A DNA stretch of 64,000 nt from the IMG/VR virus record IMGVR_UViG_3300020411_003822, one strand, 5' to 3'. Position numbers and translations under genes: made by a program. Source of the DNA: an uncultured virus (IMG/VR IMGVR_UViG_3300020411_003822) (lineage: Duplodnaviria > Heunggongvirae > Uroviricota > Caudoviricetes). Of this stretch, positions 10,285 through 56,050 are shown one piece after another (the first letter of the stretch is position 1; every line of letters starts with the position of its first letter). The notes below the pieces were generated by a model. That model saw only the letters and a program-made list of their open reading frames with translations. It was not told the DNA's origin and did no database searches.

Positions 10285-10286
10285 AC

Positions 10287-11051: not shown

Positions 11052-11061
11052 TACAGAACAC

Positions 11062-11301: not shown

Positions 11302-11316
11302 ACCTCAACACTAAAC

Positions 11317-11688: not shown

Positions 11689-11707
11689 TAATTACAGAAC
11701 ACTAAAC

Positions 11708-12067: not shown

Positions 12068-12087
12068 ACAGAACACAATACAAATAC

Positions 12088-12122
12088 GACCCATCACTGG
12101 GAGCCAGTGATGGGTCTTTTTT
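12088..12122 (+). terminator. Hairpin + T tract
   Basis: GACCCATCACTGG-GAG-CCAGTGATGGGTC-TTTTTT. Confidence 0.8.
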
Positions 12123-12155
12123 ACGGCCCTCCCGAAAAGGGGGTATGAACTCAAC

Positions 12156-12746: not shown

Positions 12747-12752
12747 CTGAAC

Positions 12753-13085: not shown

Positions 13086-13556
13086 TGTCAGAAATTAACC
13101 GTCTGAAACTATTCCCAGAAAGTTGGGACCTTTCGCTATGGACTCCATCAATTGATGAAAATTGTCGAGTAATAGAATCACACGGAGTATTCAACAAAAA
13201 TGAGATTGTTGTCATTGAAACAACAATACCTGGACAGGACTTCCTGTTCGTCTCTAAACTGTTGGATCCAAGTGCAAGGGGTGAAATCCCTAAATCAAAT
13301 CTTGAACAATTAAACTGAACATGGCAAAGATTTGCGAAAGAGAAGGCTGCAGAACAATAATTGCAGCAGGGTCAAGGCACAATTGCAGACAATGTGCAAG
13401 GTGCCTAAGGATTTACGGGAGGTGGACAAATGGGAAAAATAACACTTCAAGTGATTCAACCATCATTAGATGAAGGAGTTTGTTGGCTTCAGCCAAGAAC
13501 ATGCGGTAACTGCCCAGCCAATGGTTGTGGTAAGTGCCCAAATGCACAAACTGAAC

Positions 13557-14555
13557 ATGGGTCTTTTTGGAAAGAAGAAGATTAGTTGGGAAGATGACGA
13601 AGATGAAGTCATCGAAGTTCCAAACGAAAGTAAGGATATTGAAGAAATACCAACCAAGACCGAAAAACCACCCGAAACAGTGAGCAAAAAGAAAGTTGAA
13701 AGCACACCCAGGGAATTTGTTGCAACTAAAACAAGCAACGAACCCAGGAGAGTTTCAACAGTCACCGAGCGCCTAAACAGGCTAAGCATCAATCAACGAA
13801 TGCAACTTATGAGTGACATAGCTTCCTCTGTAATTGAGGGGCATATTGCTGCAGCACTAATCGGGGGTTCACCTGGACTTGGAAAAACACACGAAGTAGT
13901 GGAAGTATTGCTGAAAAGGAAATACAAAAGAGTGGAACATGAAGACTACCTCATTATCAGGGCTGGAGTATCAGCCTTTGGTGTTTACAAATTAGTGGTC
14001 CAATGGGCTGAAAAGGCACTTCAAGCCAAAGCAGACGCACAAGGGAAGAAGGGCGCAAGTGGGAAACCTGCAAAGGTGAAAATCCCAATCATTGTGTTCG
14101 ATGATGTCCCCATATGGTCTGACAAAAGAATGGTAGATTTGCTAAAGGCACTGATGGATACCAGCGACAGGAGAATTGTTTCGTGGCTAACGGATAGAGC
14201 AGCAATCGATCCTGAAGAAGCGAAGAGACTGGGCAAATTACCTGCCCAAGTAGAGTTCACCGGTGGCGTAATCGTAATCACTAATGAGGAAGAGAAGAAA
14301 ATGAACTCGGCCATCCTCGACAGAACAATGTATCTCCCTATCGAAGTAACTGATGAGGAGATGATGGTCCGAATGAGAACACTCATCGACAAAGTAGAGC
14401 CAAAGATGGACAAAGTCCTCAAAAGGAATGTTCTTGAGTGGCTATTGTCAGATGAGTATGAAGGACAAGAGCGTTCAATGAGAACTCTCGTCAAAGCACT
14501 CAAACTTGCTCGCGCTAATCCCAAGAATTGGAAGCGCATGGTGCAAGTTGTGTGA
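13557..14555 (+). CDS. AAA-family ATPase
   Basis: Walker A GSPGLGKT, Walker B IIVFDD, sensor ITN, Arg finger AILDR; start at the motif ATG. Confidence 0.85.
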   Translation: MGLFGKKKISWEDDEDEVIEVPNESKDIEEIPTKTEKPPETVSKKKVESTPREFVATKTSNEPRRVSTVTERLNRLSINQRMQLMSDIASSVIEGHIAAALIGGSPGLGKTHEVVEVLLKRKYKRVEHEDYLIIRAGVSAFGVYKLVVQWAEKALQAKADAQGKKGASGKPAKVKIPIIVFDDVPIWSDKRMVDLLKALMDTSDRRIVSWLTDRAAIDPEEAKRLGKLPAQVEFTGGVIVITNEEEKKMNSAILDRTMYLPIEVTDEEMMVRMRTLIDKVEPKMDKVLKRNVLEWLLSDEYEGQERSMRTLVKALKLARANPKNWKRMVQVV

Positions 14556-14810
14556 TACTGAACATGAAGAAAAAAGTCATTGTCTTATGGACAGATGATT
14601 TGGACAGAGAGCATGCTTACCTCATTGAAGGTAAAGACCTAATTGATCCAGAAGCATTTGCTTTTCACTTGCGATGTCACAAAACAGTAAAACGAGTGAA
14701 AACAATACAATTAGAAGAAATCAGGAACGAGCATGCACCTGTAATAATTCGTTCACTGCAACCACTTCCGAAAGAATTCGGAACACTGATGAAAGAGATG
14801 AAAACTGAAC

Positions 14811-15902
14811 ATGGGACGGAAGAAGAAGAAAACCGTTGAAAAGGAGGCAGATGACGGCATCCAACACATAATGTGGATGAACCGAATATTTGCAGATGAT
14901 TTGTATGAAGACCCTAAGGGCGAAGCCGTAGAAGACAACTATTCAGAAGTGATGAATAGTTTTGTCGCTTGGGCGGCTGGCTCGCACGGCGAGGGAATGA
15001 AGGATTTACTGGAACCTTCGCCAAGCAAGGATTACGAGGTACAAATACAGGGAGACATAGGCGATGACACTTTCAAAAAGTTCGCTATGGTCAGAAGCTT
15101 TTTGCGATTCAAATCAAGTCAAGATGAATGCGAAGAACACTTTTGTAACGCAGAACAGTTGGTAGAATGGGTCGCCACAAACGACTCCAAACACCGACTT
15201 CAAGGGGGAGATCTAAAGGAATTCGAGTTGATCATCCCACACATAACTGCGAATGCCGAAGAAATCGGAATCACATTTATCGAGGGGCAACCCCTTGAAG
15301 AATCAATCATTGACAATGCTACAGAAGCAACTCCTGACACAAATGCTGAAGAGGTACTCGAAGCAGCATTGGAGAAGCAAGAGCAAATCGCAAAGGAAAT
15401 TGAAGAAAAAGCAGAAGAGGAGCAGGTCGAACCTGAACCAGAATCTTCTGTTGAAGAAGAGAAAGGAACTGAAACTGAAGATGAAACCGAGGAAGAGCAT
15501 GTGCACGGTCCAAACTGTAATCATTCTCACGAAGAACTCGAAGACGATGAGTATGTGCACTTCAAGTACGAGGTCCTGGAAAGTCCACAAGAGGAAGACC
15601 CAAGAGATAGTGACCCCGAATGGGGCCTAAACGGGGATCCTTTACCTGTGGTAAGAGGAAGCGAAGGATTGGTTTCATGGTCTGCTTTAGCAACTGTTGT
15701 TGAAAAACAGGAAGGCATTGAAGACCTAATCCAGAAGAAACCAGATTTCGACAAAATGTTTGCATCTGCAATTGAAGAGATGCACAAAGATGGAGTAATG
15801 CAGAATGGCCGATGTCTAATTGACGCTATATTGGTCGTGCTGGAAATAGATCCACGAATGGCGCATCGAATAGTAGCAATCTACGAACAGGTGCAAAACT
15901 GA
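14811..15902 (+). CDS. Highly acidic hypothetical protein
   Basis: 363-aa ORF, Glu-rich, HVHGPNCNHSH. Confidence 0.75.
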   Translation: MGRKKKKTVEKEADDGIQHIMWMNRIFADDLYEDPKGEAVEDNYSEVMNSFVAWAAGSHGEGMKDLLEPSPSKDYEVQIQGDIGDDTFKKFAMVRSFLRFKSSQDECEEHFCNAEQLVEWVATNDSKHRLQGGDLKEFELIIPHITANAEEIGITFIEGQPLEESIIDNATEATPDTNAEEVLEAALEKQEQIAKEIEEKAEEEQVEPEPESSVEEEKGTETEDETEEEHVHGPNCNHSHEELEDDEYVHFKYEVLESPQEEDPRDSDPEWGLNGDPLPVVRGSEGLVSWSALATVVEKQEGIEDLIQKKPDFDKMFASAIEEMHKDGVMQNGRCLIDAILVVLEIDPRMAHRIVAIYEQVQN

Positions 15903-15904
15903 AC

Positions 15905-16336
15905 ATGGCACTCGCAGAACCATTTAGCGAAGAGAGTGAGGCATTTCAATGGAAGAAATGCAATACAACAAGCCAATGCTGCGTATCATGTGGTAATTCG
16001 ATGCAGAAGGGGAAAATAGCCCTTCTAATCAAAAATGCACACGACACCACAGAAAAAAAGCAGTATCTTTGGCTATGTTGCAGATGTATCTACCGATTTG
16101 CAGAAATAATCAAAGCGGGAATAGAAACAGATAGGATTTACCTACAAAAAAACAGCAGTACAGGAACTGGATGCATTCATTGCGGTGGAAGAGTCACCAA
16201 AGGACAGATTCACCTCAAACTATGCAATGCAAGCGATAGTATTCGAACAAAGAAAGAATTGTGGATTCACAGAAAATGCAGAATCCCATTTGCGAACAAA
16301 ATCAAAAGTAAACTTGTACTGCCACAGAAGAAATGA
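15905..16336 (+). CDS. Tandem zinc-finger protein (PARP-type-like)
   Basis: Two repeats of CxxCG....KG....W(L/I)(C/H)xxC. Confidence 0.6.
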   Translation: MALAEPFSEESEAFQWKKCNTTSQCCVSCGNSMQKGKIALLIKNAHDTTEKKQYLWLCCRCIYRFAEIIKAGIETDRIYLQKNSSTGTGCIHCGGRVTKGQIHLKLCNASDSIRTKKELWIHRKCRIPFANKIKSKLVLPQKK

Positions 16337-16639
16337 AATGGTAGGTATCAATAAGACTGAACATGGGGGTACAAGACGCACACGAACTGTTTGGGCGCGG
16401 GTTGTTACATTGGAACTTACTGGTTCAAAGAATTGACTTTGATGAATTCAAAGATATTCTTGAATCAGTAAGAGGATTCCGCATTTCTGAGGAATACGCC
16501 TTACAATGCTGGGAACTATTTCCAAATCCAATGGAATTGAAGTTGAAATTGAAAGGAGAATTTACAAAATTCTCGAAATTAGCAACAATGAGAACAAGTG
16601 GCTTTGGGATCCATAGAGATCTTACGCCATAAACTGAAC

Positions 16640-17758
16640 ATGGATGACTTTGTACACGATGCAAGGAGCTGTGGCTGGTGCAAGAAAGCATTAGCCGCAA
16701 AAAGGAGAAAGACATCACCTGTTGGTCCAGAATGCGAAAATAGCCTGCCTGAGCAGTGCAATGTCGCATTACTGAATCTAACACAACATTCTTCTGAGCA
16801 TGGCCATCCAGGCACAGCAAGTGAAAATGCCCAACGAGCAATTGACAACTATTTCGGAGATGAAATAGATTTGGTATTGACATTTGACATGTGGTTTTAC
16901 AATGACATAAGCGAGGCAACAATCAATGCTTTTTGGAATGATGATGGAGATCTAAAACATATCCATTTCATCAATCCTGACGGCGGAGACGACTTGCTTG
17001 ATGAAGAAGATAGGCCATTTTACAACAAAGAAGAATTGACACTACGAAGAAGAGTAGCAATGATGCTCGACAAAAGAACCAAGACGAAAATAGTCGTCAA
17101 GCACATCGATGCAGATTGGATTTGGTTCTTGAATGGAGGCCATTACAGTGGTCCAATATGTTCAAGAAGAAATCCAGAAGAAGTCGCAAAGGAAAATGGG
17201 TGGGATTATCCTATTCGAGTTTGCGGATATTGCAGCCTGATGGTTGCAGATTACGATATGATCGATGAGGCAGAAAGGATGACGGAGAAAATCGAACAAC
17301 AGAAAAAACAAATCTGTTGTTGTGGTTTAGGAGATGCAATTTACAAGAAACTGATAGACCAGTATGATGCGTCAGCATTACGAGAAAGTCTTGATGTTCG
17401 AATGGCAGACATCACCCGCCACGAATGGTTTAGAGAACATAACGCTGGCTTTTTGGGCTTGTTAGAACAATACACAGTTGATGGACATGACTACGAATAC
17501 CCTGGCTTGGTAAAACATGAACAAGTTGGAGAAGTGTTCGAAAATGGCGGCTACGAAATTGAATTCGATAGCGATTTAGGCCAAGACATCTTGGTAAACA
17601 ACATACTACCTATTTTTCTAAGAGGCCTAACAACAGGGTTCGATGAAAAGTGGAATTATGTGGTTGGTAAATTAACACAGCAAGAATATGGTGCCTGGAA
17701 AGACTGGATGACAGCAGTAATGCGACCAGTCGATTTTGACGGACCATATCTACTGAAC
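16640..17758 (+). CDS. Hypothetical Cys-containing protein; no stop before the motif at 17752
   Basis: Motif start at 16640; continues in frame into the 17759 gene. Confidence 0.6.
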
Positions 17759-18235
17759 ATGAGCAGAACAGTTGGACGACTGGAAAGAGCAACGGTGATA
17801 CCCATATTGAGGTTAGACCGTGACCCAGAACCACCACACTGGCAATCAGAATTTCCGGATTTACGCAGTATGACTGCTAAAATCGATACAGGCGCGAAAT
17901 CAAACACACTGAGAGTAGAGCAATTAGATTACAAGGAAAAAAGCGGCATTCAATATGTAGCTTACAAATTAGGGGGCGAATGGAGCCCCTGGATAGAGTT
18001 TGACAGAAAGGTGGTTAAATCATCAAACGGATTTGCAGAGAACAGGCCATGCATATTGTGCTGGTTTTCTCTTGGAATCGGTGATGAGCGGATCACGCAC
18101 GAATATGCGTGGTTCACAATTACAGAAAATACACAAATGAGAAACCCAATTTTGATTGGTCGAGACACACTTAGAGCAAATCGATTAGCAGTAGAGGTGT
18201 GGGAATCATTCAAATTGGGGAGACTCAGGGACTGA
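17759..18235 (+). CDS. Retropepsin-like (RimK/LysX-associated, 'ATP-dependent Zn protease' family) protease
   Basis: AKIDTGAKS...KSSNG...NPILIGRDTL; begins at an internal ACTGAAC-ATG. Confidence 0.75.
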   Translation: MSRTVGRLERATVIPILRLDRDPEPPHWQSEFPDLRSMTAKIDTGAKSNTLRVEQLDYKEKSGIQYVAYKLGGEWSPWIEFDRKVVKSSNGFAENRPCILCWFSLGIGDERITHEYAWFTITENTQMRNPILIGRDTLRANRLAVEVWESFKLGRLRD

Positions 18236-18237
18236 AC

Positions 18238-18486
18238 ATGGACGGACAGATGAGAGGTTCGGAACGGTTTACCTATGATAAATCATGGGAGGAAATTGAA
18301 GCAAAATTAGACGAGGCGGAAAGATTGCAAAACGCACACTACACTGCATTGCAAAAAGGTGGATTAACTCGAAAACAAAAGTTACACCACATGAAGCAAT
18401 ACAAAGGATTGGAAGGAGCGGTTGCAACTCTTAGGTGGGCTCTCGGAGATCCACAATTCGACCCACTGACAGGAAAGAGGGATTAG
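18238..18486 (+). CDS. Hypothetical helical protein
   Basis: Motif-started ORF. Confidence 0.65.
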   Translation: MDGQMRGSERFTYDKSWEEIEAKLDEAERLQNAHYTALQKGGLTRKQKLHHMKQYKGLEGAVATLRWALGDPQFDPLTGKRD

Positions 18487-18743
18487 ATGAGTAGAATACC
18501 CCTTGATGTCAAAGTAGGTGACAGAGTTACCAGCACCCAATTGAAAAAGCACGGTTTAGTAAGAGATACTCCCTTGCACAAAGGAAGTAAAACTTGGACT
18601 GTGGTTGAAATCAATGAAGGTACGACAACAATGTCAGGGTTTTCTGGAAAGAAGAAGAAAGCACCAAGAGAAATGAAGATTACCCGCATTGTCTTACAAG
18701 CACGAAATGGAGTAAAAACCAGAACATTCTGGTACAACTGAAC

Positions 18744-19295
18744 ATGGCCTTAGACAAGCGTAAGCGAAGGAAGGTAAATTCTTTGGTGCAGAAAATCTCT
18801 GCTCAAAGAAAATTGATTCGGACTGGCCGAATAGAAGGCAACCGAGAAGAGGAAAGAGAGATGTGTGTAGAAATCTCACATCTGATTGGCAATGCGAAAT
18901 GTGATTTAGGCATGCCAGCAGAACATTTCGAGCACAATCTAATTGACTTTGACACAGGATTGATTGAATGTCACTCCCTACCCGTCAAGGAAAAGGGGGA
19001 ATGGAAAATCAAGAGAGATGAAAAGAAGCAAAACGAACTCCGAATGGAGATCGAGCATCTTCGAAGTGGCAGAGCGGGCATTTATGTCAATCACGCCACA
19101 GGTAAGAGGATTAGTGAAAAGCGATTTTTGAAATTGACGCCTAAAGAACAAAAAGAATGGACAAAAGGCGGCATCATTACTCAAACATTAGTTCACGCTG
19201 ATAGAATTATTGCTGAAGAGAAAGGTCAAACAACAAAGGCCTTAGAACTCGCAGCATTAAATGGAGAATTCACACTCTACCAGGCGAAGGAATAG
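18744..19295 (+). CDS. Hypothetical protein
   Basis: Motif-started ORF carrying the YxHxxTGxxI module. Confidence 0.7.
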   Translation: MALDKRKRRKVNSLVQKISAQRKLIRTGRIEGNREEEREMCVEISHLIGNAKCDLGMPAEHFEHNLIDFDTGLIECHSLPVKEKGEWKIKRDEKKQNELRMEIEHLRSGRAGIYVNHATGKRISEKRFLKLTPKEQKEWTKGGIITQTLVHADRIIAEEKGQTTKALELAALNGEFTLYQAKE

Positions 19296-29455: not shown

Positions 29456-30356
29456 GCGACTGGAGAGGAAAATGAAAAGGAACGAGAAAATCCTACCCCC
29501 TCTCGGTGTATTCGAAGATCCACCTTATCGAGCCCAAGAAACTGAATCTTGGAAATTGGCGAAAGGTGGACCTAACGAAGCGAGAGGATGGTTTAGTGGA
29601 ATAACCCCGCTACCAGATGGAATCTGGATTCTAAAGCGTGGTGAAACTACATGGATGAGTAATTCTCCTTTGGAAAGAGAAAGCCAATACCTGCCGATTT
29701 TAGCGGCCACAGGTAATGTGGTTGTAGGCGGACTTGGCATGGGATGGGTTGCATGGAACATGGCAATCAAACCCGATGTGGAGAGAGTAATCGTAATCGA
29801 AATGGATGATGAATTAGCTGATGCATTCCCTGCAATGTTGGGAATGGATTCGGAAGATGAATTGCCATTCGAAATATATCGAGGAAATGCTCTCACTACA
29901 ACAATAGACGATCTCGGCCTTCAGCATGTAGATTTGCTTTACATGGACATTTGGCCGGACATAAATCAACCCGAAGCCCCAGAAGACACCAAAACTGCAT
30001 ATGGAAACATTCCCGCAGACAAGGTGTTCTGGTGGACACAAGAATTGGAAATCGCAGATTTTTCAGGTGAAAGAAGAGATATACACCCAGGAAATCCGTA
30101 TGTGACAGTGACCAGAAAAGATGTGAAGGATTACATCAAACACATTGGTCTGCCACTTTCGGGACCAGAACTGGTTGATAATTTCAATATCCTGGTAGAG
30201 CGAGCGAGATACCACACCAACATGACTGGCTTGGAACTTACAGCAGGCATACAGTTGGAAGAAAACGGTTATCCAAGAATTGTCCAATTAGGCGAATCAG
30301 GAGAATTTATCGTTCGCAGAGGAAATGAGTTTCACCGAATCGTCAAAGATTACTGA
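29436..30356 (+). CDS. Spermidine-synthase-like class I methyltransferase fold protein
   Basis: WMS...VVVGGLGMG...VIVIE...DIW. Confidence 0.7.
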   Translation: MNRKERKRLERKMKRNEKILPPLGVFEDPPYRAQETESWKLAKGGPNEARGWFSGITPLPDGIWILKRGETTWMSNSPLERESQYLPILAATGNVVVGGLGMGWVAWNMAIKPDVERVIVIEMDDELADAFPAMLGMDSEDELPFEIYRGNALTTTIDDLGLQHVDLLYMDIWPDINQPEAPEDTKTAYGNIPADKVFWWTQELEIADFSGERRDIHPGNPYVTVTRKDVKDYIKHIGLPLSGPELVDNFNILVERARYHTNMTGLELTAGIQLEENGYPRIVQLGESGEFIVRRGNEFHRIVKDY

Positions 30357-30404
30357 ACATACAACAACTGTTAGATTAAATAGAATGGATCAATCCGACT
30401 AAAC

Positions 30405-31169
30405 ATGCTTACAGAAGCAGATTGTTTGCCTACGGGCAAAGATGAGGAAGCAGAAATCGAAGTGGTAATCGATGCAATAAACCAGCATCTAATCCACAAC
30501 GAAATTACGCTATTGGAAGATGGAAAAGCGAGTATCGGCGGATATGTGTTTGACACGGAACTGCTATACTGCTATCAAAACAATGAGCATCATGAAGAAG
30601 GTTGGCTTTACAACCACATTATTGGAATGCTCATAGAGAAATCGGTAGGTGAATGGAGAAGTAAATACATCATTGGAGAAGCCGATGAATCAATCCTTGA
30701 GATTGCGATTGTATTCTCAGATCTTGGAAAACTATCCACATTGAAGGATAGTCCCAAGAAGACATGGGAAGATGGCACGCCACAAAGCACTGCGTTTGGG
30801 CACGACAAAGCTTCTGCAAAACTACTTGAAGAAGCGTGGACATTGGATCAAGAAACTAAGTATAGTGACGAAGGCGTTGCTTACAGAAATTTCATTGCAA
30901 TCCATTGGATTGTAGAGGAGCACATGAATGCTCACAAACTTGCAGAAATGGATGAACAAGGCAAAACCACAATTCCAGATTGGCTCATGCCCCAGGTCGA
31001 AGGACTTGAAGCATGGGACTGGCCTGAGTGGGCAGACCTTGAGATTCCTCACGGTGCGAACATGGGCAAGAAGGCATACGCTTGGATAAGGCGTGGAGCC
31101 AGCATATTGCTTCGTATCAAGCAAGAATGTGATGAATACGGAAGGATTTCAAAGCAATCCTTCAACTGA
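30405..31169 (+). CDS. HD-domain protein
   Basis: HHEEG..YNH, SDLGK, GHDKAS, HM, DEYGR. Confidence 0.7.
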   Translation: MLTEADCLPTGKDEEAEIEVVIDAINQHLIHNEITLLEDGKASIGGYVFDTELLYCYQNNEHHEEGWLYNHIIGMLIEKSVGEWRSKYIIGEADESILEIAIVFSDLGKLSTLKDSPKKTWEDGTPQSTAFGHDKASAKLLEEAWTLDQETKYSDEGVAYRNFIAIHWIVEEHMNAHKLAEMDEQGKTTIPDWLMPQVEGLEAWDWPEWADLEIPHGANMGKKAYAWIRRGASILLRIKQECDEYGRISKQSFN

Positions 31170-31499
31170 ACATGGTTAGCTTGAGCATCAGCATAGTCTG
31201 TACAAGGGATCAAGGGGACACAAGGCCCCGTTATGAAAATGTGATGAATCGCTTGAAACAGATTCACACAGAAACAAGAGAAAGAAACCCTAAGGGGTTC
31301 ATGGATGAGTTAGAAATGCGATTGGAAGTTCACATGACGGACATTGCAGCCGAAATGGCCTGTACTGTAATTATGGTTGAAGACATGCATTTTGTTTTCA
31401 ACTTCACAGGATATGACGACAAAGATGTCGAAAAGGTCGTGAAACAAAAAGGAACTGCGAACAGTCTAACAATTGACTTCCGAGAACATTTTACTGAAC

Positions 31500-32657
31500 A
31501 TGCTGGAATATCGTTTGAAAGCGAATCTGGAAAGGGAAGGTAAACCCGTATTCTTTGCTAATCCTTCACCAAATAAGGTGGAGCAATACAAGGCAAAGGT
31601 CGGAAATAACTTCAAAATCGTGTTCTACAGGACAGAAGGGGCGATGGAAACATACGCAATACCATTCAGTGTACTTGAAAATACACTGATACCTGAAACC
31701 TTGAACACAAACAAAAACCCACGATGGATAACAATGATCATTGATGGGGTATTGACCGTCACATTCAACGGCGGCAAAAAGGTAAAAATCGACATATCAA
31801 TGTATTTAGAATTTGAATTGACTACAGAAGTGCGAGAAGGAGACTGTGCGAAAAACATGGAATCTATTGCAAGCGGTTCAGTAGCATGCATAATCACCTC
31901 GCCCCCCTACAAAGAGGGTGATGGTTACAGCGAAGAGTTGATGCGAAGTTGGCTGAAACAGGCCTACAGGATATTGAAGGATAGCAGTTGCCTATTCCTT
32001 AACTTCGGCCATCAGGCTGGAAAAAAGGAAAGAGCATTTGAAGTTGCGACAATGGCAGTTGATGAAGGGTTCGTGTGGAATGATACCATAGTTTGGGTCA
32101 AAAACCACTACACGCCTTTGAATGTGCCTACTCGTGTAAACAATCTGACAGAATTTATTTTCCTTCTCACAAAAGGAAAGCCGAAATTGGACAAACTCGG
32201 TATCGCAGTTCCATACGGAATGCCCTGGACAGTTAATCCAGGGGCACCTGCGCCTGAGAATAAACAATTGATGGAAAGATACGGAAGATTGCACAAATGC
32301 GGAGGAAATGTGTGGTACATCAAATACCAACCTATCACTGCAAAAAATCCTAAGAGACACAAGGACAGATTCCCAGTAGAACTGCCTCTAAGGGCATTGA
32401 AACTGGCGAATGTCGAAGGAACCATTGTAGATCCATTCAACGGAAGCGGAACAACCGGTGCTGCATGCATCGAATATTGGAACGAGTCCGAAGGAGAGAA
32501 GAGAATCAATTACATTGGTTTTGAATTGAATCCAATGCACATCAAATTTGCAAGAGATTGGTGGCTGAAGATTCGAGAAACTGAACATGACATTGGAAGA
32601 TGTTTTATTGAGAATAAGCCAAGTACAATCGAACTTGGACGAAGGAAGAGAGATTAG
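31500..32657 (+). CDS. DNA methyltransferase (N4/N6, beta class) with N-terminal extra domain
   Basis: ITSPPY, HKDRFP, DPFNGSGTT. Confidence 0.9.
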   Translation: MLEYRLKANLEREGKPVFFANPSPNKVEQYKAKVGNNFKIVFYRTEGAMETYAIPFSVLENTLIPETLNTNKNPRWITMIIDGVLTVTFNGGKKVKIDISMYLEFELTTEVREGDCAKNMESIASGSVACIITSPPYKEGDGYSEELMRSWLKQAYRILKDSSCLFLNFGHQAGKKERAFEVATMAVDEGFVWNDTIVWVKNHYTPLNVPTRVNNLTEFIFLLTKGKPKLDKLGIAVPYGMPWTVNPGAPAPENKQLMERYGRLHKCGGNVWYIKYQPITAKNPKRHKDRFPVELPLRALKLANVEGTIVDPFNGSGTTGAACIEYWNESEGEKRINYIGFELNPMHIKFARDWWLKIRETEHDIGRCFIENKPSTIELGRRKRD

Positions 32658-33525
32658 CACCTTCACATTAGAGGAATGCAAAAACAGATTCTTACACCAC
32701 ATTAAAATCATAAATCAGAAAACAGGAAAGAGCAACACTGAGGTGTTTTGGTCTTTCATTGATTGGAATTTCTGGATGACGATGTGGGAAACAAGAAAAG
32801 TGGCCGAAAAGTTAGAAATGACTGAATTCGCACCTTACGACAAAGAAACATGCAAAGAAAGAGCATTTGCAGCACGCGACTTCTTGTTAAAGGAGAAGTG
32901 TGGAGTATCGTTTGGAATCATGCAGAATTTGTGGGTTCAGGGAGTCGCAATCGGAAAATGCGACTTTCTGTTAGAACTCACTAACGCCAAAGACTTGAAC
33001 AAGAATCATAGAATGTTGAGCAAAGAATTGGGTCAATTCTTCACGCCTAAGTGTGTGACGGATTTGATAGCCAGAATGATTAGTTCTCCCGAAGATGATG
33101 AGAAAAGGAATTCTGTCTGTGACCCAGCCGCTGGATTCGGTGGGATGCTGATCTCAGACTGGTACAAATATGATGGAATGGCAAAACCAGCAGGTTCGCG
33201 GATTTATTTCGCTTCTGAATTATCAACAAGGACTGCGAGAGCATGCTTCTTGAATATGGTAATTCACAACATACCTGCAGTTGTAGATAACATCAACAGC
33301 TTGAGCCAAGAGAGAATTAGCCCAAGATGGTTCACACCATTGTTACTAATGATCATGAAATTAAGCCAACCAACAGAATGGGATGAGAATATTCTGTTGT
33401 CAAATCCTCCATTCACGAAAGAATTTGGATTACACTGGTTGGCTGACATGATGATGGAGGACTCAAAGGGCAATCCTGAATACAATGAATCCATGAAAAA
33501 ATGGAGAGAAAAATATTGTAACTGA
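32587..33525 (+). CDS. N6-adenine DNA methylase (type I HsdM-like, gamma class)
   Basis: GQFFTP, DPAAGFGGML, NPPF. Confidence 0.85.
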   Translation: MTLEDVLLRISQVQSNLDEGREISTFTLEECKNRFLHHIKIINQKTGKSNTEVFWSFIDWNFWMTMWETRKVAEKLEMTEFAPYDKETCKERAFAARDFLLKEKCGVSFGIMQNLWVQGVAIGKCDFLLELTNAKDLNKNHRMLSKELGQFFTPKCVTDLIARMISSPEDDEKRNSVCDPAAGFGGMLISDWYKYDGMAKPAGSRIYFASELSTRTARACFLNMVIHNIPAVVDNINSLSQERISPRWFTPLLLMIMKLSQPTEWDENILLSNPPFTKEFGLHWLADMMMEDSKGNPEYNESMKKWREKYCN

Positions 33526-33527
33526 AC

Positions 33528-33965
33528 ATGGCTCGTACACGAGACGAACTGCATGATGCAGTGGATAGGGTGATGGCTCGCTACATTACAGAAGCGGCTA
33601 TCAACAAAGAAGGTGACGACACCGGACTTGATTCTTGGTTTGAACCAAGAACCACTTATGGTTTCAGAATCGCCAAAGAGAAAATTGTAGCGTTTGATGG
33701 CTACACATTCGGAGAAAAAGCCGATCTAATCGGACAGAAACCGTATGAAGATTTGAGCGAAGAAGACAAAGCCCTCATTCCAGAAAGTCCCTATGCTCTA
33801 TTCTTCCTTATTGGAAAAATAGAGGGAACTGACGAATGGGTGTACACACACTGGCTTCAAGAAGATTGCAGATTTGCACAAAAAGTCGCATGCGACTGGT
33901 GGGATAGCGCAGAAGGTGATGTCCTTGAAGATTGGGGCATCGAATACGATGACATAGAAGACTGA
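33528..33965 (+). CDS. Acidic hypothetical protein
   Basis: Motif-bounded ORF. Confidence 0.65.
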   Translation: MARTRDELHDAVDRVMARYITEAAINKEGDDTGLDSWFEPRTTYGFRIAKEKIVAFDGYTFGEKADLIGQKPYEDLSEEDKALIPESPYALFFLIGKIEGTDEWVYTHWLQEDCRFAQKVACDWWDSAEGDVLEDWGIEYDDIED

Positions 33966-33967
33966 AC

Positions 33968-34885
33968 ATGACTGATGAAGATACTCGAAAGATGTTTCAG
34001 AATTGGGCAATGAGGGGTGTCATGCCTAACAGCCAGAAGAATGACTTCTGGACACCCAAAGAAGTGTTTGATGCATTAGATGAACGCTTTGGGCCATTCA
34101 CACTTGATGTGGCCTCAAGCGAAGAAAATTCACTTTGCATTAATTTTTACACAATGGAAGACAATGGATTAGAACAGAAATGGAATGGCATCGTTTGGTG
34201 CAATCCTCCATATGTCAAACAACTCTCTGCTAAATTGAACAAGGAGGGAGAGATTGTAAGAGAACAGATAGGTCGTGGAGATAATTCCACAATCAAGGAT
34301 TGGGTGTTGAAGGCATACCAATCAGTATTGTCAGGAGATGCAGACAGGGTGTTGGTATTGATCCCAACATACCTTTCGAATCATTACTGGCACGACATTA
34401 TTTTCCCTAAAGCATCACATCTTGTCTTTTTCAAGTCAAGACTGGACTTTCAAGGGCCACACATGCGAGCCGGAGGGGCATCAAGAAATCCCTCTGTTGC
34501 AGTGGTCTTTTCCAGAATGTGGAGCGGAGTGGGAATGCAGGTGTTGAGAATGTCTAACAAAGGCGAATGGCTGACAGAGGAAATCTGGGACAGGAAGACC
34601 TTAGAACTCAAATTGAAAAATGGAGTAGAGGCATTCGGACACGAATTAGAAGGAGACAAGTTTGTAGTGCTAAAGGGTTCAACAGCAAACTCAGAAGCAA
34701 GACCATCATGGAGGGAAACCGAAAGAAGATGGAGACAGAAGCTTGTCGAAGATGGTGCATTAAAACAGGTAGGGGAACAGATGATCTTCACCAGAGATGT
34801 AACATTCAACTCGAAAAGTGCCGCAGCATCACAAGTGAGAGCCGTACAATCAAACGGTAGGAAGTTGTGGGTTGAAGCAAACTGA
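33968..34885 (+). CDS. Phage Dam-type N6-adenine methyltransferase fused to a DUF4357-like domain
   Basis: WTP..FTLDVASSEEN..WCNPPY; C-terminal FVVLKGS...FNSKSAAA..NGRKLW. Confidence 0.85.
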   Translation: MTDEDTRKMFQNWAMRGVMPNSQKNDFWTPKEVFDALDERFGPFTLDVASSEENSLCINFYTMEDNGLEQKWNGIVWCNPPYVKQLSAKLNKEGEIVREQIGRGDNSTIKDWVLKAYQSVLSGDADRVLVLIPTYLSNHYWHDIIFPKASHLVFFKSRLDFQGPHMRAGGASRNPSVAVVFSRMWSGVGMQVLRMSNKGEWLTEEIWDRKTLELKLKNGVEAFGHELEGDKFVVLKGSTANSEARPSWRETERRWRQKLVEDGALKQVGEQMIFTRDVTFNSKSAAASQVRAVQSNGRKLWVEAN

Positions 34886-34889
34886 ACAT

Positions 34890-34964
34890 GGGCGCATAGT
34901 GTAGTGGAAATCATTCTGGCCTTCTAAGCCGGAGACCTGGGTTCGAATCCTGGTGCGCCCGCCA
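34890..34964 (+). tRNA. tRNA-Arg (TCT)
   Basis: Acceptor GGGCGCA/TGCGCCC, G73, encoded CCA; anticodon arm CTGGC-CTTCTAA-GCCGG; GGTTCGAATCC; its 5' G is the G of ACTGAACATG. Confidence 0.95.
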
Positions 34965-35083
34965 AATACCCTTAGGGTTGCGATGGCACAATGTAATGGA
35001 GGAGGAAGCAAAACCAAACAGTAGGTTAGCACGGACAGAAGTCCGTCCCTCAGTCGGCTATACGCCCCTCCTCCCTACTTAAC

Positions 35084-35521
35084 ATGGGATATACACACTT
35101 TTGGTATTTACCAGAGGGAAGGATCTCGGATGACAATTGGGAAGAATATTCCGAATGTGTCAAGACGATTGTAGAGCCCCACATTGGTGGGTGCATAGAA
35201 AAATTAGTTGTGAATGAGAATGTAGTGGCATTTGAGGGCGCACCAGCCCACGAAACCTTTAGTGTTCGAAGAGAACAATTTCTGGATTCATGGCAAAGAA
35301 AGAATGACAGAGTTTTCAATTTCTGTAAGACGGCTCGAAAGCCATACGACAAAATTGTAACGGCCTGTCTTACAAAAATGAAATCCGTCTTCAAAGATGA
35401 TGTGAAAATCGCCAGCGATGGAGAGGCAGAAGATTGGGAGACTGGATTTGAATATGCAAATGCAAGCGAAGAAGAAATCAAGAATCTGATAGCAGATCTT
35501 GAAGAAAATTATGATAACTGA
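35084..35521 (+). CDS. Conserved phage hypothetical protein
   Basis: MGYTHFW...FCKTARKPYD..V.ACL. Confidence 0.7.
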   Translation: MGYTHFWYLPEGRISDDNWEEYSECVKTIVEPHIGGCIEKLVVNENVVAFEGAPAHETFSVRREQFLDSWQRKNDRVFNFCKTARKPYDKIVTACLTKMKSVFKDDVKIASDGEAEDWETGFEYANASEEEIKNLIADLEENYDN

Positions 35522-35538
35522 ACACCGAACAAATGTAT

Positions 35539-35591
35539 GCGGCCAATAGTGACGAGTAATCTCTACTCCGACCTATTGGCCGCTTTTTTTT
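35539..35591 (+). terminator. Hairpin + T8 tract
   Basis: GCGGCCAATAG...CTATTGGCCGC-TTTTTTTT, then a CCTCTTT-TGAA-AAGAGG hairpin. Confidence 0.75.
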
Positions 35592-36735
35592 CGCCTCTTT
35601 TGAAAAGAGGGTGACTAAACATGAGCACTAAAGGTGTAAACTTCTCGGTTCATATTGAAATCGAGAATGAGGAGGAACTGCTCTTGGTAAGAGATGCAGA
35701 ATACGAACTTCTGGAAAAGGACATCAGCTTCGATGCTGGGCAAACAATCGGTATGCCCACTGTAAGAGATTGGTTCCTTGAAGAGATTCCAGAAAATGGA
35801 ATGAAGCAAATTCAATTGGCTTTGGACGAATTAGAACGGAAAGGACTGAATTATGAAACAATAGTATCGGGAGATCTGATAGAATGATAGGCGAAGTGTT
35901 ATTTGCATTAATCATCATCATGGGACTTTTCTTTGGATGGGAAATTCTTGTAGCGAAATTTCCCGATTTGTTTACCAGTAACTACAACATCGGAAAGGAC
36001 GGTGGAGACAGTGAAGAGTAGATTTGATAGCCCAACTTGGAGAAACTACATCAAGGACTTCTGTAAAGCAGGGGTCATTAGATTAGACGCCCAATACGAG
36101 GCACAAGGCGAATTAATTTCATTATTCGAACAAATGGAGAACTGAACATGATACCAGGTCAGCGATACAACACAACCAAGTTCAAAAGAAAGAATCACCA
36201 CCATGCAGTTGCTAATTCAAAGCGATTCCTCATGGAAAAAGGTATTATTGATGAGAACTGGAAGAGAATTGACAGGAAGGACTGAACATGACATGGGAGG
36301 GATTAGATGAGAAAACTGACTGAAGCTATAGTGGCAAATCTTGAACACTATGCGCAGATGGTAATAGAAGAGTCAATGTCCGTAAAGGAACTTTCAGAAG
36401 TTCTCGGTGTAGAACCTGATTCAGAACATATCAGGGAAATATTGGGATTGGTTGAAGAAATACGGCATAAACTCGGAGAAACTAATGCAAAGGCCCGAAG
36501 ACTTCTTCATTTGTTGAAGTATGGGCCTGACGACTGAACATGAGCAAATTGCAAGAAGGGCAAGTGTGGAATAACAGGTATCACGGAAGGCCATCAACGA
36601 TTGTTGAGGTCTTTGTTAAAGATGAAAAGATCTGGGTTCGGTATCGAGTGGAACAACCATATTATCGAGATGAACCAGAAGAAAGAGCACTGGATGAAGA
36701 ATTATTCAAAGGACTTTACACCCTTTGTACTGAAC

Positions 36736-46270: not shown

Positions 46271-47932
46271 ACATGGACGAAGAATTCACCGTATGGAGAA
46301 TCCAAGAAATCGTCTTGGCCGAGGAATGCCCTCTCCAAGACAGATTTGACAGAGAAGAATTGTGGTGTGACGATGTGGACTACACGGGTGGTCGCCTCAA
46401 CTTCATCGCTTTTGTGAGCAATTGGCCTCACCCCGATATTTCGGCAACAGAGGCGAAGCAATTGAAGGAGTACCTCGAACGAAAAGTGATTAACGAAGCA
46501 GAACGCCAATATCCCAATGGCGCAAGAGCGCGAATTTACTTGCCCAGTGGCCCCATAGAGGCGTATTGGCCGGATGAAGACTGAACATGAAAACTGAATT
46601 GGCATTAACATTCAACACTGGAATGTTTAGGCGGGACGAGCCGTTGGTGATCTATTCATCCAAACATCTCGGCCCAGTTACAGCAGAATCAACAATAGCA
46701 AGAATGATTCACCCCAAAGGGAGAGGCATTGGCTTTGCAAAGGCAAAGGATACAGGAATGATTGGAACCTTTCCTTTGGAACGACTGGATTATGCAGTAA
46801 AAATGACAATATCTCCCGAAATGTGGAACTTACTATCGGAGATAGACACGATTCTTGACAGTATTCAATCGCACAATGAAGCTTATCGAATAATTGGATT
46901 GCTTGATGGCGAAGGGTTACTGGAAAAACACAAGGAAATCAAAACAATCAGGGATAAAGCCAAAAAAATAGGTAGAGATATTAACCTTGATTACGGAGAC
47001 TGAACACATGTCCGAAGAAAAGACAAGTTTTCGTGAATGGATTGAGAGATTCTTGGAGAAAGTACCTGACGATGCGCTGATAAACTGCTGCATCGAGATG
47101 TCGTATTCTCAAGGAGCAAAAGGCGGTAAAGAGATCATGGTGACTGGTCTGCATCCTAACGATGCAGATTGGCAAAAGAAATACCCAAGCAGTAAAGATT
47201 GTTGGGGTGGAAACCCAGTAAATCGCGCCAAAGACTGAACATGTCGAGCGAAATTGACGACAGTGAGGATGGATTCGTTTGCCCACAATGCGATAAACGA
47301 TTCCAAGAGGGAGAATGTATGCCTGCAGTTGCTTTAGCAGCGCAAATCGGAAGAGAAGAAGATGTTGTATTATGTTCAATAAGATGTCTGGTAGGCTTCT
47401 TGAAAGAGCACGCAACTAACTGAACATTGAAAAGGAGAAGCATCTTGGAGAGAATTGGGCCGGAGTTTCTGATTGCTTTCATATCTTCTTCAACTTCAGG
47501 TGGTGGTTGGAAGTTTGGGGTAAACTTCCTCCTCTCCGGTCCACCTTAACTTAACATGGCAGACGACTTGCTGAAGGGAGTAGACATGGATTCTACATGG
47601 AGTTGGTACGGGGACTTGGAAGAGGTCAATCTCTTTACATACAGAGGGGAATTTCATAATGACAATTCCATTATGGTAAAAATAGTAAACGAAGAGGGGG
47701 ACAAATTGAAGGTCCGTTTTCACATTCAAGAGGTAGAGATCCTTGAAGTAATCAAGGCAGCTACCGAGAAAGACGAACTACTTGAATTACTGGACAACAT
47801 TTACGGCCTCCTTGAAGGAATGGCAGATGGAGCGGAAGACACAGAGGATTACGATGATAGCGAGAGAATCTTTGCAAATGCAAGAGATCGTGCGCATCGT
47901 GCCTGGGCTATCGCAAAGAACCTAAACTGAAC

Positions 47933-53067: not shown

Positions 53068-55497
53068 ACCTAAACATGACTGAAACTGAACCAGTTGAGG
53101 TAAAAGTTCTACCCTATGAAGGATATGAACTGACGGAATGGGAATTGCGTAGCAATCCCGACAAAAATGGATTGAGAAAGATAGAAGGAATTGATTGCAA
53201 GACATCGTGGCCGACAGAAGTTGAAGTCGGACAGCACCTTGTAAGAAATAATCTCACCTTAGAAGAAGTGAAAAAAGTAGAACGAGGACCAATTACAACA
53301 TGGATCTTGGGAGAATACATGCACAACGACAAAATTGTACAGTACAATGTCGAGAACCACAACAAACAATGGGTAATCATACTTGAAGAACAAACTGAAT
53401 TAGTCCAAGCGGAAATCAAACTTCATCTCAAAATGCGAGAAATTGCGCATGAGCATGTGAAGAAAAAAATCGAAGAAGCTGAGGCTAAGGGGGAACCTTT
53501 GTTCAAACCTACACGCTTCCGACACAAGGAAACAGGAGAGATTGTAACTCAAATTAACTTGATGCAGATCAAGAATTACGAGAAACTCGATGACTGAACA
53601 TGACTGGACAGGAACCAGAACAGGAAAAGGTTGGAGTTTGTGGATACTGCGATTTTGTGCAGGGATACCACCCTCACAACATGTTGCGTATTGACGAGAA
53701 CCCACGATTAGCATATGACTTTTGCAAGTCGTGCGGAGGGCATCATTTGCAACCAACATCACAATGCAAGGATTTCATACCGAGAAATCCAGATGTGTAT
53801 GAGGGTTCGATTTGGTTTTGCCAGGGCTGCGGTTCTGGAACTGAGTTCGAAATCACAATGAAAGAGGCCTTGAAAAAAGCAGATTACTGAACATGGACAC
53901 ATATTGCAGTTTATGTGGGGAACCTTTTGACATTGGAGAATTTTCATACATGGAAAGATTCGATGCAGAAGAGGCATCTAAGATATTCCGCCTATACGGT
54001 TGCGGGATCTTATGGAAAATGGAAATGAATCCAGAATTGTCTTTGGAAGAGGCAAAGGAATTCAAATGTAGCCCAAGAAATGTTGAGATGAAACACCTTG
54101 CAGATATGGCAGGCGCATTAGGCGACATCATGGGCGATGATATTGACGGATTAGCATCATTGATGGATGGATACTGAAATGAGCAAAATCAAGGAAGAAG
54201 CGATTGACTTACGATCATCCTTGCACAAAGTAAGGGAAATTTGCAAGCAAAATGCAAAAATGATAAATGAAATCCCAAGCAAATGGACTCGTGCACAAAG
54301 CGCGAAAGAATTTACGGGATTAGCCGATTACATCGGATGCTTACTCATAAAGGACGATAAGGGAAGAGAAAAGGCATTATTGCGCTGGGCGAAAAAAAAC
54401 AAATGAATACTGAACATGGCTCACTATTATTGCAAAAGATGCAAAAGACAAATGAAAATATCTTGGCAAGCACCCACTACCAAAATATGTGCAAGGTGCT
54501 GCAGAGAAGAAAGAGAGAGTACAGGAAAACCGATTCCTGGTCCTAAAGGACTGAACATGAAAGAAAAGGCCGATTGGTCCATTTGCGTTGATTGGGAAGT
54601 CGATGAAAATGATTGGATAACAGAGGAAAGAACAGAAAACTTGGCGAAACTATCCGTCTGTTTACTGTTCAACCATCGCTTTCCGAAGTGGATTTGGAAG
54701 GCACTTTGGTATAATCTGCCCTGGAAAGCAGCAGAAGCCACAGAGAAATACATCAAAGAACATTCAGATATTTTGGATGAAAAAGGATGGCCAGAAGCGA
54801 ATGAATACATCAAGGAATTGAGAAAAACAATAAAGCAAACTGAACATGAGTTGGCGATGCCGATGTGATGAAGATGAATTGCCAATCCTACGGGGATTGG
54901 TAGATGAGATCCTCTGCAAAGCGGAGGAAATGGAACAAAGCACGAACCGCTTTCTAAGAGAGGTTGGTGCAGAATTGAAGAAAACAATTTGGGAATCTAA
55001 CAATGAACCCAAAAACGATGGTTCACCTATCTGGTGGCCGAGACACGAAACGATTAACGGCAACATCTGCTTAATCGAAGAGATTCTTGATGAGAACCAA
55101 GAACCAATTAAGATGCGTGTTAAACACGAATACTGAACATGAGTATCTGCGGACATTGCAATACGGAAATTACATCTGAACCTATGAGCAAAGGTGTATA
55201 TGGAGGGGACTGGATTTCCAGTTGCCCTATTTGCGAATGGTGTAGTGAAAGCGAAGAAGATTCGAAGATTAAACAGGGATTAACCCTTGAGGAGCTTGTC
55301 GAACATAAAGCCAAATTGAATAGCGTATATGCGAAATTACACGATCTTGTATTTCGAGCAAGAAGTGCAAAAGGAGCATATAGGCAACATTCGACCAGCC
55401 ATACTCCCAACAAATCATTTGTGAACAGAACTATGTCAGAAGAAATAATGGTGGAACTTGGTGAAGCCATGAATCAACTTTTGGACAAAACTGAACA

Positions 55498-55587
55498 CCC
55501 TGCTGTGCAAGCGCACGGCAGGGCTATTTTGCGGCCTCGATGAAAACGGGGTCGCCTATTTTTTTTGGCCCTCATGAAAACGGGGTC
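55498..55587 (+). terminator. Array-end hairpin plus tandem T-tract/GAAAA elements
   Basis: CCCTGCTGTGC-AAGC-GCACGGCAGGG, then CTATTTT..GCC(C)TC.ATGAAAACGGGGTC twice. Confidence 0.65.
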
Positions 55588-55750
55588 ATTCTATGATTCG
55601 ACCACACTTTCTGCAACTACGAGGGTGGCATCCAGAGTGCCGAGGGCAGGGGTTTTCACATTTACATTCATCGGACATGCTCGCAGAATATCCGCTCGAC
55701 TTCATAACGGTGTCGCTACGATTAAACGGATGAAGCACTTGCCCTTTACC

Positions 55751-56050
55751 ATGACAACAGTTGGCGGTATGAATTGGAATGAATTTCGCAAGCAGCACAA
55801 AGGAGAGGACAAAGAGAGAATCTCCGAACTATGGAAACTATACAAAGAAGGAGAATACGACCCCGAAGCTTCAACAAACATCGACCCAAATCACGGACAC
55901 GATCTGGACTACATCGCAGAAGTAGAAGCAGAGATGGCCGAAGAAGCCGAAGAAAATGAAGTCAAGAGAGAACCTGAGCAACAGGAATACTTGAACGAGT
56001 TAAACAACGAAGAGAAAAGAACCGGTTTGAAATCAATCACTCACTGGTGA
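55751..56050 (+). CDS. Hypothetical protein
   Basis: ATG 21 nt after TTAAACGG; WNEFRKQHKG..ISELWKLYK. Confidence 0.6.
   Translation: MTTVGGMNWNEFRKQHKGEDKERISELWKLYKEGEYDPEASTNIDPNHGHDLDYIAEVEAEMAEEAEENEVKREPEQQEYLNELNNEEKRTGLKSITHW

Follow-up and report, generated by a model that had tools for sequence, protein, structure and literature searches.

A tRNA-Arg gene in a gene slot behind the repeated start signal of a marine archaeal mobile element

Described parallels and the tRNA-Arg slot

The poxvirus late-promoter initiator is a short private motif that lies at the RNA start, merges with the ATG and precedes many genes of one class, and the non-virion RNA polymerases of giant phages (of the phiKZ and AR9 type), which are divergent multisubunit enzymes, use very short promoters close to the start site. 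In other systems a repeated boundary element is cut to release the units between its copies, as in CRISPR repeats cut by Cas6, the tRNA punctuation of mitochondrial transcripts and the RNase III sites between the early genes of phage T7. The gene junctions of non-segmented negative-strand RNA viruses and the transcription-regulating sequences of nidoviruses are, in turn, short virus-specific signals that define mRNA ends. By analogy, the nearest known parallels appear to be these virus-specific start signals and these punctuated transcripts, which come from other domains of life than the locus analysed here, a stretch of 64,000 nucleotides (nt) catalogued as an uncultured virus (IMG/VR record IMGVR_UViG_3300020411_003822). 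This whole stretch is called the window below, and all positions are given in its coordinates. It belongs to a marine archaeal mobile element in which copies of the 10-mer ACTGAACATG head the genes of a one-strand array, and one of these copies leads directly into a gene for tRNA-Arg.

The comparison with each of these systems has its limits. Poxviruses are eukaryotic viruses with a complete polymerase of their own, whereas the element encodes only an A''-like RNA polymerase subunit and a TFB-like factor, and initiation at its motif is putative; phages of the phiKZ and AR9 type are bacterial and have split beta and beta' genes, whereas the polymerase protein of the window is archaeal in type. 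With punctuated transcripts the element shares the repetition of a signal at unit boundaries and the embedding of tRNAs among the units, but its units are whole genes, the cut proposed here (at the AUG) would yield leaderless mRNAs, and the nuclease is putative. The likeness to negative-strand viruses and nidoviruses is one of logic only, RNA genomes and RNA-dependent polymerases standing against a DNA element with archaeal-type transcription proteins. Phages and archaeal viruses that carry tRNAs matching their codon usage resemble the element in that the tRNAs of the window are host-like and the codons AGA and AAA are enriched in it; they differ in that the tRNA-Arg of the window stands precisely behind a gene-start signal, and in that the tRNA of the relative G001 (Lys-CTT) reads the rarer Lys codon. 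Among described marine archaeal viruses, group B magroviruses carry tRNAs according to the main text of their description (PMC5434244). No account of a gene-start motif of this kind was found in the literature; the word "motif" occurs 0 times in the main texts (supplements aside) of PMC5434244 and PMC10160649, and literature occurrences of the exact 10-mer are, among the matches listed, unrelated by title.

The tRNA itself is ordinary. What is new is where it stands: behind a gene-start signal that is family-wide and specific to each element, and in an archaeal mobile element with a TFB-like factor and a paralogue of a polymerase subunit. The gene for tRNA-Arg(TCT), at positions 34890-34964 on the + strand, is called by ARAGORN and scores 58.8 bits against the Rfam tRNA family (RF00005; gathering score 29) at 34890-34961, and its CCA is encoded in the genome at 34962-34964. 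The parts of the fold are present (seven acceptor pairs, GGGCGCA/UGCGCCC; U8; the GG of the D loop; U33; the anticodon UCU; the T loop UUCGAAU), and the irregular pairs are one U-U in the D stem and two G-U in the T stem. Over the full length it is 86% identical to a tRNA-Arg(TCT) from a metagenome-assembled genome (MAG) of Poseidoniales, with CCA encoded in both and with acceptor-stem differences that are paired and compensatory; against five other archaeal genomes the identity is at most 79%, over partial length.

An exact copy of ACTGAACATG lies at 34881-34890 on the + strand, and its final G is position +1 of the tRNA. The earlier note on this DNA had described both sides of this junction correctly, since ARAGORN and Rfam start the mature tRNA at 34890, the G of the motif's ATG, and the gene upstream ends in the motif's TGA (34883-34885). 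That gene (33968-34885, + strand, 305 amino acids) encodes a Dam-like DNA adenine methyltransferase (Pfam Dam 3e-25, DUF4357 3.9e-13) and is itself motif-led, with ACTGAACATG at 33961 and an RNA contig whose first base coincides with that of its ATG (33968). Reading from ATG 34888 meets a TAG after 3 codons, so the sequence speaks against an expressed open reading frame (ORF) from this ATG, and antisense ORFs across the site give no Pfam match. Given some 80 motif sites over about 51 kb, the chance that the 5' end of a tRNA falls on one of them is estimated at roughly 1 in 600. The homologue of the Dam-like gene in G001 is 61% identical, and there the motif is followed by a protein gene where the window has tRNA-Arg. 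A motif exactly at tRNA +1 was seen once only; a tRNA adjoining a motif recurs in G001.

The tRNA-Arg would thus sit in an ordinary gene slot and be expressed through the same signal as its neighbours, and a tRNA in such a slot is the simplest argument for a signal that acts on RNA synthesis or processing and not on ribosomes. We consider it probable (about 65%) that RNA 5' ends are set by the signal, at the A that follows the 7-mer ACTGAAC.

The signal, its transcripts and its relatives

The exact 10-mer is present in 75 copies in the window, all on one strand, along an array of about 50 kb; with at most one mismatch there are 96 matches (95 on the + strand), whereas shuffled sequences give 6.6 on average and at most 14. 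The 7-mer ACTGAAC occurs 87 times on the + strand and once on the - strand, and the next letters are ATG in 75 of the 87 copies and A in 86. Information content is limited to -7..+3 around the A of the ATG, with a weak A-richness at -8..-11 and none beyond -11; among the window sites nothing is conserved further 5' of the motif. Frames of at least 40 amino acids are opened by 86 motif-led ATGs. The variants ACTAAAC, ACTTAAC and ACTCAAC mostly stand after non-coding gaps with G+C-rich hairpins and T-runs, and 6 of the 11 copies of ACTAAAC lie directly before an ATG.

The canonical archaeal promoter, a TATA box with B recognition element (BRE) about 25-35 nt upstream, is not seen gene by gene: no TATA/BRE-like signal was found at -20..-35, where runs of five A/T reach at most 8% at the 75 window sites (mean 3.6%) and at most 12% at 60 sites of G001 (mean 5.4%). 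Likewise, no oligo-T terminator precedes the motifs, TTTT runs reaching at most 2.7% at the same 75 and 60 sites. The stop codon of the next motif ends 31 of 95 motif-led frames, and the remaining frames overlap the next motif or stop earlier. Termination-reinitiation coupling would place the stop at a fixed point in the signal, which these 31 of 95 frames do not bear out, and the corresponding motif of the relative L003 (ACCGCTC) holds no stop. The motif is tied to gene starts rather than to gene ends.

Motif copies also occur within long ORFs, with the ATG in frame, at 17752, 37585, 49195 and 54550, and look like nested products or fused cassettes. The internal start at 17752 lies just ahead of the Zn_protease domain of a 531-amino-acid protein, and the one at 49195 is residue 424 of a protein in which DUF7007 begins at residue 425. 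At ACTGAACATT (47419-47554) a 42-codon frame runs from ATT and closes in the stop of the next variant motif, which makes the site either a decayed slot or a non-ATG start.

Loci of relatives were located through the A''-like protein, and G001, the sole relative read whole, was reached through L161. The A''-like gene is present in all of four relatives, with the same layout, the array lying on the strand opposite to it. Each has a counterpart of the 7-mer at its starts, namely ACCGCTC in L003 (9 of 10 copies before ATG), ATTGAAC in L005 (6 of 7 before ATG, the seventh before GTG) and ACTGACC in both L009 (5 of 6) and G001 (60 of 67). Since the 7-mer differs between relatives, a reader encoded by the element itself would be needed. 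Pairing of the motif with host 16S rRNA was set aside, as the relatives' 7-mers differ at up to 4 of 7 places; AGCAAATG, enriched in L002 and L004, was ruled out as a start signal, being glutamine-rich coding sequence.

G001 is a complete record of 128.8 kb with terminal repeats, and it holds 60 exact copies of ACTGACCATG on one strand between 73.7 and 113.9 kb and one copy on the other strand. About 15 array genes are common to the window and G001, in different order. G001 encodes a thermosome, a serine resolvase/recombinase, the A''-like protein and, at the array head, the TFB-like protein, the gene for which was seen only in the window and G001 (the members whose array head was read). None of its proteins matches the families of the catalytic subunits A' and B, and hence the element cannot make a polymerase of its own and would need the core enzyme of the host. 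The single tRNA of G001, Lys(CTT), is encoded on the same strand as the array and at its head; its CCA is followed by two bases and then by ACTAACCATG and a gene, and on its 5' side there is just a poor motif-like string 36 nt away. The examined stretches of L001-L009 and L161 hold no tRNA, so that recurrence of a tRNA behind a motif can be checked in G001 only.

Evidence from RNA comes from four metatranscriptome runs of one study, in the form of contigs, which cannot prove RNA ends; the counts refer to the 32 listed of 81 contig pieces and are set against random placement. Three of the 32 start exactly at a motif ATG (28619, 32587 and 33968, from three different runs) where 0.06 would be expected (p <5e-5), and for nine the start lies between -3 and +25 relative to a motif ATG (1.8 expected; p 5e-5). 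A motif is bridged by one piece, against 14.7 expected (p <5e-5). Starts that fall on the A or 3' of it, and in no case at -7 or beyond, are unlike a break that arises from strain branching in an assembly graph. The deepest piece (35663-36147) ends on the C before ATG 36148 and holds three small ORFs with no motif between them. No listed piece covers tRNA-Arg or the spacer behind it, so these pieces are uninformative on the expression of either. Three unaligned letters stand at several contig tips; since such letters are found at tips remote from motifs as well, they carry no weight here.

At 26345, 28611 and 29425, exactly at motif edges, the window and RNA contigs from related strains part ways, and genes seem to be exchanged between strains as motif-bounded cassettes.

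Genes with and without the signal also differ in their ribosome-binding sequences. Shine-Dalgarno-like 4-mers, scored at -16..-4 with the consensus taken from general knowledge, precede 10 of 18 array genes without a motif (picked by hand, and possibly including false genes) as against 16 of 86 with one (Fisher p 0.002). As would be expected of leaderless mRNAs, the starts of motif-led genes are thus not preceded by Shine-Dalgarno sequences above the ATG background of 25.5%. In archaeal operons the first cistron is leaderless and the internal cistrons are Shine-Dalgarno-led, and the contrast between motif-led and motif-less genes therefore matches that between 5'-terminal and internal cistrons. 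Behind the motif at three places (8149, 25648 and 36281) comes a short leader that contains a strong Shine-Dalgarno sequence, and the ATG lies 15-41 nt away. The predicted single-strandedness of the 7-mer is higher with natural than with shuffled flanks in both elements (0.577 vs 0.518, p 0.003; 0.547 vs 0.462, p 0.001), and the region +1..+10 has no such predicted gain.

Besides tRNA-Arg, further slots are without a protein gene. A non-coding element composed of a small hairpin, a 19-letter core and a second hairpin occurs in three copies, all on the + strand, with cores at 3291, 5007 and 34980. By alignment and pattern search, an ACTAAAC without ORF is followed by copy 1 (3258-3420, + strand, core 3291) and an ACTGAAC without a real ORF by copy 2 (4975-5140, + strand, core 5007); the motif and tRNA-Arg come before copy 3. 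This third copy (core 34980-34998) lies in the structured spacer of 112 nt 3' of tRNA-Arg (34965-35076, + strand; fold -37.7 kcal/mol), which ends at the next start signal. There, the variant signal ACTTAACATG (35077-35086, + strand) leads a gene (35084-35521) whose stop falls within a further ACTGAAC (35517-35523). The sequence beyond it (35540-35620, + strand) reads as a terminator-like hairpin (35540-35583), a T8 run (35584-35591), a second hairpin and an ACTAAAC (35614-35620) before ATG 35621. Gene-less motif copies stand just before terminator-like hairpins at 35517 and 55490, and a gene-less motif before a hairpin is also found at the array ends of L003/L004, L009/G001 and L005. At permissive thresholds Rfam has no family for the spacer, the non-coding element or the array head, and the non-coding element was not found in G001 or the other relatives.

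ARAGORN finds one other tRNA gene in the window, also on the + strand: tRNA-Lys(TTT) at 8069-8142/8143 (Rfam 72.9 bits; no encoded CCA), which is 83-87% identical to Poseidoniales MAG tRNAs. Directly 5' of it stand ACAGAAC (8055-8061) and ACAAAC (8062-8067), then A (8055-8068 in all, + strand), which bear a weak likeness to the signal. On its 3' side (8143-8173, + strand) follow CTTAAC (8143-8148), ACTAAAC (8149-8155), ACG, a Shine-Dalgarno-like AGGTGG (8160-8165) and ATG 8171, so that a variant signal begins six bases 3' of the discriminator and lies 15 nt from the start codon; the string CTTAACACTAAACACG recurs at about 11183. The suggestion that this tRNA is likewise bracketed by the signal therefore holds in part, in that the named flanks are all present and the 3' ACTAAAC is an attested variant, but the 5' pieces are degenerate and only loosely motif-like.

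The anticodons TCT and TTT had also been thought to read codons abundant in the array. In 77 array genes of the window (13,925 codons) AGA makes up 45% of Arg codons (25.4 per 1000) and AAA 60% of Lys codons (43.4 per 1000). The Poseidoniales sample has AGA at 10% of Arg codons (6.4 per 1000) and AAA at 31% of Lys codons (13.8 per 1000); it is a small sample (9,399 codons, from ORFs of at least 200 amino acids in six MAG loci) that lies near RNA polymerase and tRNA genes, and Poseidoniales are not proven as host. The element uses both codons 3-4 times as often as these sampled genes do. The claim stands for the window, whose tRNAs fit the idea of codon supply, and fails in G001, where the tRNA is Lys-CTT, yet AAA makes up 62% of the array's Lys codons.

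Readings of the signal

Taken together, the RNA contig ends, the non-coding slots and the Shine-Dalgarno classes suggest that the signal is not purely translational. The argument of the earlier note, that a purely translational signal would not be needed for a tRNA, is strengthened by the contig ends at the motif, by the two motif copies that lead into the non-coding element and by the Shine-Dalgarno contrast; it is weakened by the tRNA of G001, which has no good 5' motif, and by recombination, which could place a tRNA. If RNA 5' ends are fixed at the A after ACTGAAC, this A would be the A of the AUG in protein genes, giving leaderless mRNAs, and tRNA-Arg would be made as a precursor with a 2-nt leader (AU) before the mature G, probably trimmed by RNase P. 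Long transcripts of the array may be cut between C and A by a sequence-specific nuclease, presumably specified by the element; transcription of these long units would then fall to the TFB-like and A''-like proteins. Cleavage of this kind is our preference, by a little and tentatively, because the genes have no promoter element or terminator each, few pieces bridge a motif, a piece ends at -1 and gene-less motifs stand at the ends of units.

Several points weigh against fixed 5' ends or against cleavage as their source. Matches in Pfam, PHROGs and NCBIfam (most proteins being unannotated) include no nuclease candidate, and the conserved flank consists of RNase H-like, RusA and LRAT-like genes and of genes without assignment. 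The only conserved candidate readers are transcription proteins (TFB-like and A''-like), for which initiation is the better fit, and transcription starts usually show C at -1 and A at +1, as the motif does. RNase P cuts at the G of the tRNA anyway, and under cleavage the tRNA needs no motif, so that its perfect copy would be explained only by the stop codon of the Dam-like gene together with recombination at the motif; such recombination is real, and may be how tRNA-Arg came into its slot, rather than by functional need. The tRNA-Lys of G001 has a motif 3' of it and no good one 5'. Two contigs cross a motif into genes that the window does not have (loose ends at 28611 and 26345), which means that uncut molecules, or DNA in the libraries, exist. 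A single listed piece ends at -1, and contigs from one study, with 32 of 81 pieces listed, cannot reveal true RNA ends. Lastly, the accessibility effect is small and could stem from the A-rich -11..-8.

It is possible, though a little less likely than cleavage, that each ACTGAAC is instead a minimal initiator-type promoter, at which the host RNA polymerase with the TFB-like factor and the A''-like subunit starts at the A, at about 90 sites. The products would be primary leaderless mRNAs and, for tRNA-Arg, a primary transcript with a 2-nt leader, while the few hairpin/T-run sites would stop read-through. This is consistent with the position of the TFB-like and A''-like genes on either side of the array, in both the window and G001, and with the missing A' and B matches of G001, by which a host core enzyme would be used and could be re-targeted. 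The motif occupies -7..-1 with A next in 86 of 87 copies, listed contigs start at that A, and the 7-mer varies between relatives as phage polymerase-promoter pairs do; moreover, only a promoter would give the tRNA a reason for a perfect motif at a fixed distance. Archaeal initiation, however, normally requires a TATA box/BRE, and nothing of this kind lies at -20..-35 in 135 sites. Without intergenic terminators nested read-through would be expected, yet one of the 32 listed pieces bridges a motif and an abundant piece ends at -1, and gene-less motifs right before terminators would be of no use.

The two remaining explanations place the signal outside RNA synthesis and processing. It is improbable that the motif serves translation alone, replacing the Shine-Dalgarno sequence on long polycistronic RNAs and being read by an element-encoded factor, with the tRNA placed by recombination within the 10-bp motif. 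Its abutment on the start codon in 75 of 87 copies, the want of Shine-Dalgarno-like sequences at motif-led genes and the 31 of 95 frames that end in the next motif's stop (as in coupling) would all suit such a role, and recombination is made plausible by strains that differ in the neighbour gene exactly at motif edges (28611 and 26345) and by an order of the shared genes that differs between the window and G001. Yet listed contig starts cluster at the ATG and contigs seldom cross motifs, some motifs lead into non-coding sequence or lie 15-41 nt before a Shine-Dalgarno-led ATG (8149, 25648 and 36281), stop coupling is no family trait in view of the stop-less L003 motif, and a useless perfect 9-mer before a tRNA would decay. 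A junction at the DNA level, i.e., a short recombination site at which the array grows and shuffles, with expression as a secondary role and the tRNA as one more cassette, has the least to recommend it. Strain mosaics that break at the motif, the order shuffled relative to G001, the excess of motifs over genes by one in units ending at terminators and the serine recombinase of G001 argue for it. Against it, nothing requires a pure recombination site to adjoin the ATG in phase, to precede an A in 86 of 87 copies or to exclude Shine-Dalgarno sequences, the RNA contig ends stay unexplained, and to our knowledge 10 bp is short for site-specific systems.

Preferring cleavage of long transcripts at the motif, with RNA 5' ends fixed at the A, we regard a wider claim about the family as evenly balanced: that its elements have a private, element-specific seven-letter code which splits a one-strand array of 40-50 kb into about 60-90 leaderless mRNAs, with tRNA and non-coding units in the same slots, and which is read by an element-encoded TFB-like factor and A'' paralogue or by a site-specific RNase, the junctions being points of cassette exchange as well. 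On this wider claim the family would provide the first archaeal mobile element with a gene-expression code of its own.

The element and what its signal may mean

The array itself spans 3874-55543 on the + strand, which is purine-rich there by its strand skews, and holds about 100 genes, 86 of them with the signal at the ATG and a frame of at least 40 amino acids. Divergent from its head lies a TFB/TFIIB-like gene (1711-2682, - strand; Pfam TFIIB 1.6e-5, NCBIfam TFB 7.3e-7, and 1.2e-7 for a two-sequence profile against the TFIIB core in PDB), with a homologue at the same place in G001 (27% identity, 2e-20). Convergent on its end lies a gene for a 1001-amino-acid protein like RNA polymerase subunit A'' (Rpo1C) (56037-59042, - strand; Pfam Rpb1_5, TIGR02389 4.3e-21), which a profile search of PDB matches to archaeal Rpo1C at 3.8e-25 as against about 1e-3 for bacterial beta'; the first invariant residue in the family alignment is M20 of the window ORF. 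The archaeal setting, a guess in the earlier note, was borne out by this Rpo1C-type match, by the NCBIfam matches (TFB and TIGR02389) and by the Poseidoniales-like tRNAs. Close relatives are few: the A''-like protein has only 12 in a large protein collection, among them P0002-P0011 at 45-56% identity, gives no tblastn match in 50,697 phage records and none in a single-protein scan of viral contigs, and viral contigs contain no exact match to the motif joined to the tRNA start. In species genomes the best 80 loci all belong to cellular RNA polymerases, 79 of them under archaeal titles, with no close relative among them.

Several further features accompany the array. Between 9000 and 55500 it encodes two N6_N4_Mtase proteins, one N6_Mtase, Dam, Mom-like, PAPS-reductase-like and SprT-like proteins, DUF932, DUF6876 and DUF7007; in its wealth of genes for DNA modification and of anti-restriction type, the array is reminiscent of conjugative-plasmid leading regions. 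The gap that separates the TFB-like gene from the array head contains four direct repeats, each of about 62 nt (2715-3206, spaced 133-149 nt, each opening with CCGATGGCCAAA), which are candidate iterons or a candidate regulatory array; they came from a separate repeat search, Tandem Repeats Finder returning nothing at 2500-3400. After the last motif, at 55497-55770, duplicated hairpins with long T-runs are followed by a small array-strand gene (core WNEFRKQHKG...GEYD) that is found in all relatives, and in L005 a TATA-like box lies ahead of this gene, near 4900-5000.

Beside the A''-like gene, in most or all relatives, stands a conserved block (56037-63943 on the - strand of the window; L002-L009; 64911-72063 in G001) that encodes a 223-amino-acid protein overlapping the A'' start, an RNase H-like protein, a protein of 249 amino acids, an LRAT/NlpC-like protein, one of 132 amino acids, RusA and proteins of 116, 243 and 174 amino acids, most of them without an assigned function. 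Conserved flank proteins to which no function is assigned are encoded at 59035-59703, 60212-60958, 62694-63422, 63422-63943 and 1213-1734 of the window. G001 also encodes giant proteins of 2947 (10015-18858) and 2086 amino acids (29896-36156), the second with guanylate-kinase-like, DUF7831 and DUF5754 domains.

In affiliation the element resembles the magroviruses of group D, which belong to marine group II archaea, as likened by gene content and not by the polymerase clade that defines the group. According to the main text of its description, group D comprises scaffolds of unknown nature with DNA polymerase, thermosome, resolvase and RNA polymerase A genes and no morphogenetic block (Philosof et al. 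2017, PMC5434244), and a later main text describes it as enriched in the cellular fraction and possibly plasmid-like (Xu et al. 2023, PMC10160649). The likeness lies in the marine origin, the archaeal-type RNA polymerase A gene, the RusA resolvase of the window, the thermosome and serine resolvase of G001, window tRNAs closest to Poseidoniales and the lack of a visible capsid gene. No capsid, portal or terminase family was matched among the 62 window and 43 G001 proteins scanned, many of which have no match at all. The difference is that the group is defined by a family B DNA polymerase clade, whereas the window has no DNA polymerase gene; the passages on group D (in PMC5434244 and PMC10160649) mention neither a gene-start motif nor a tRNA.

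If the signal indeed acts on RNA synthesis or processing, a private control of gene expression would become testable in uncultured, abundant archaea of the ocean. It would permit motif-based annotation of these elements and would suggest how leaderless mRNAs could be mass-produced. As the array is rich in methyltransferase and anti-restriction-like genes, the logic of its expression would also bear on how the element establishes itself in its host.

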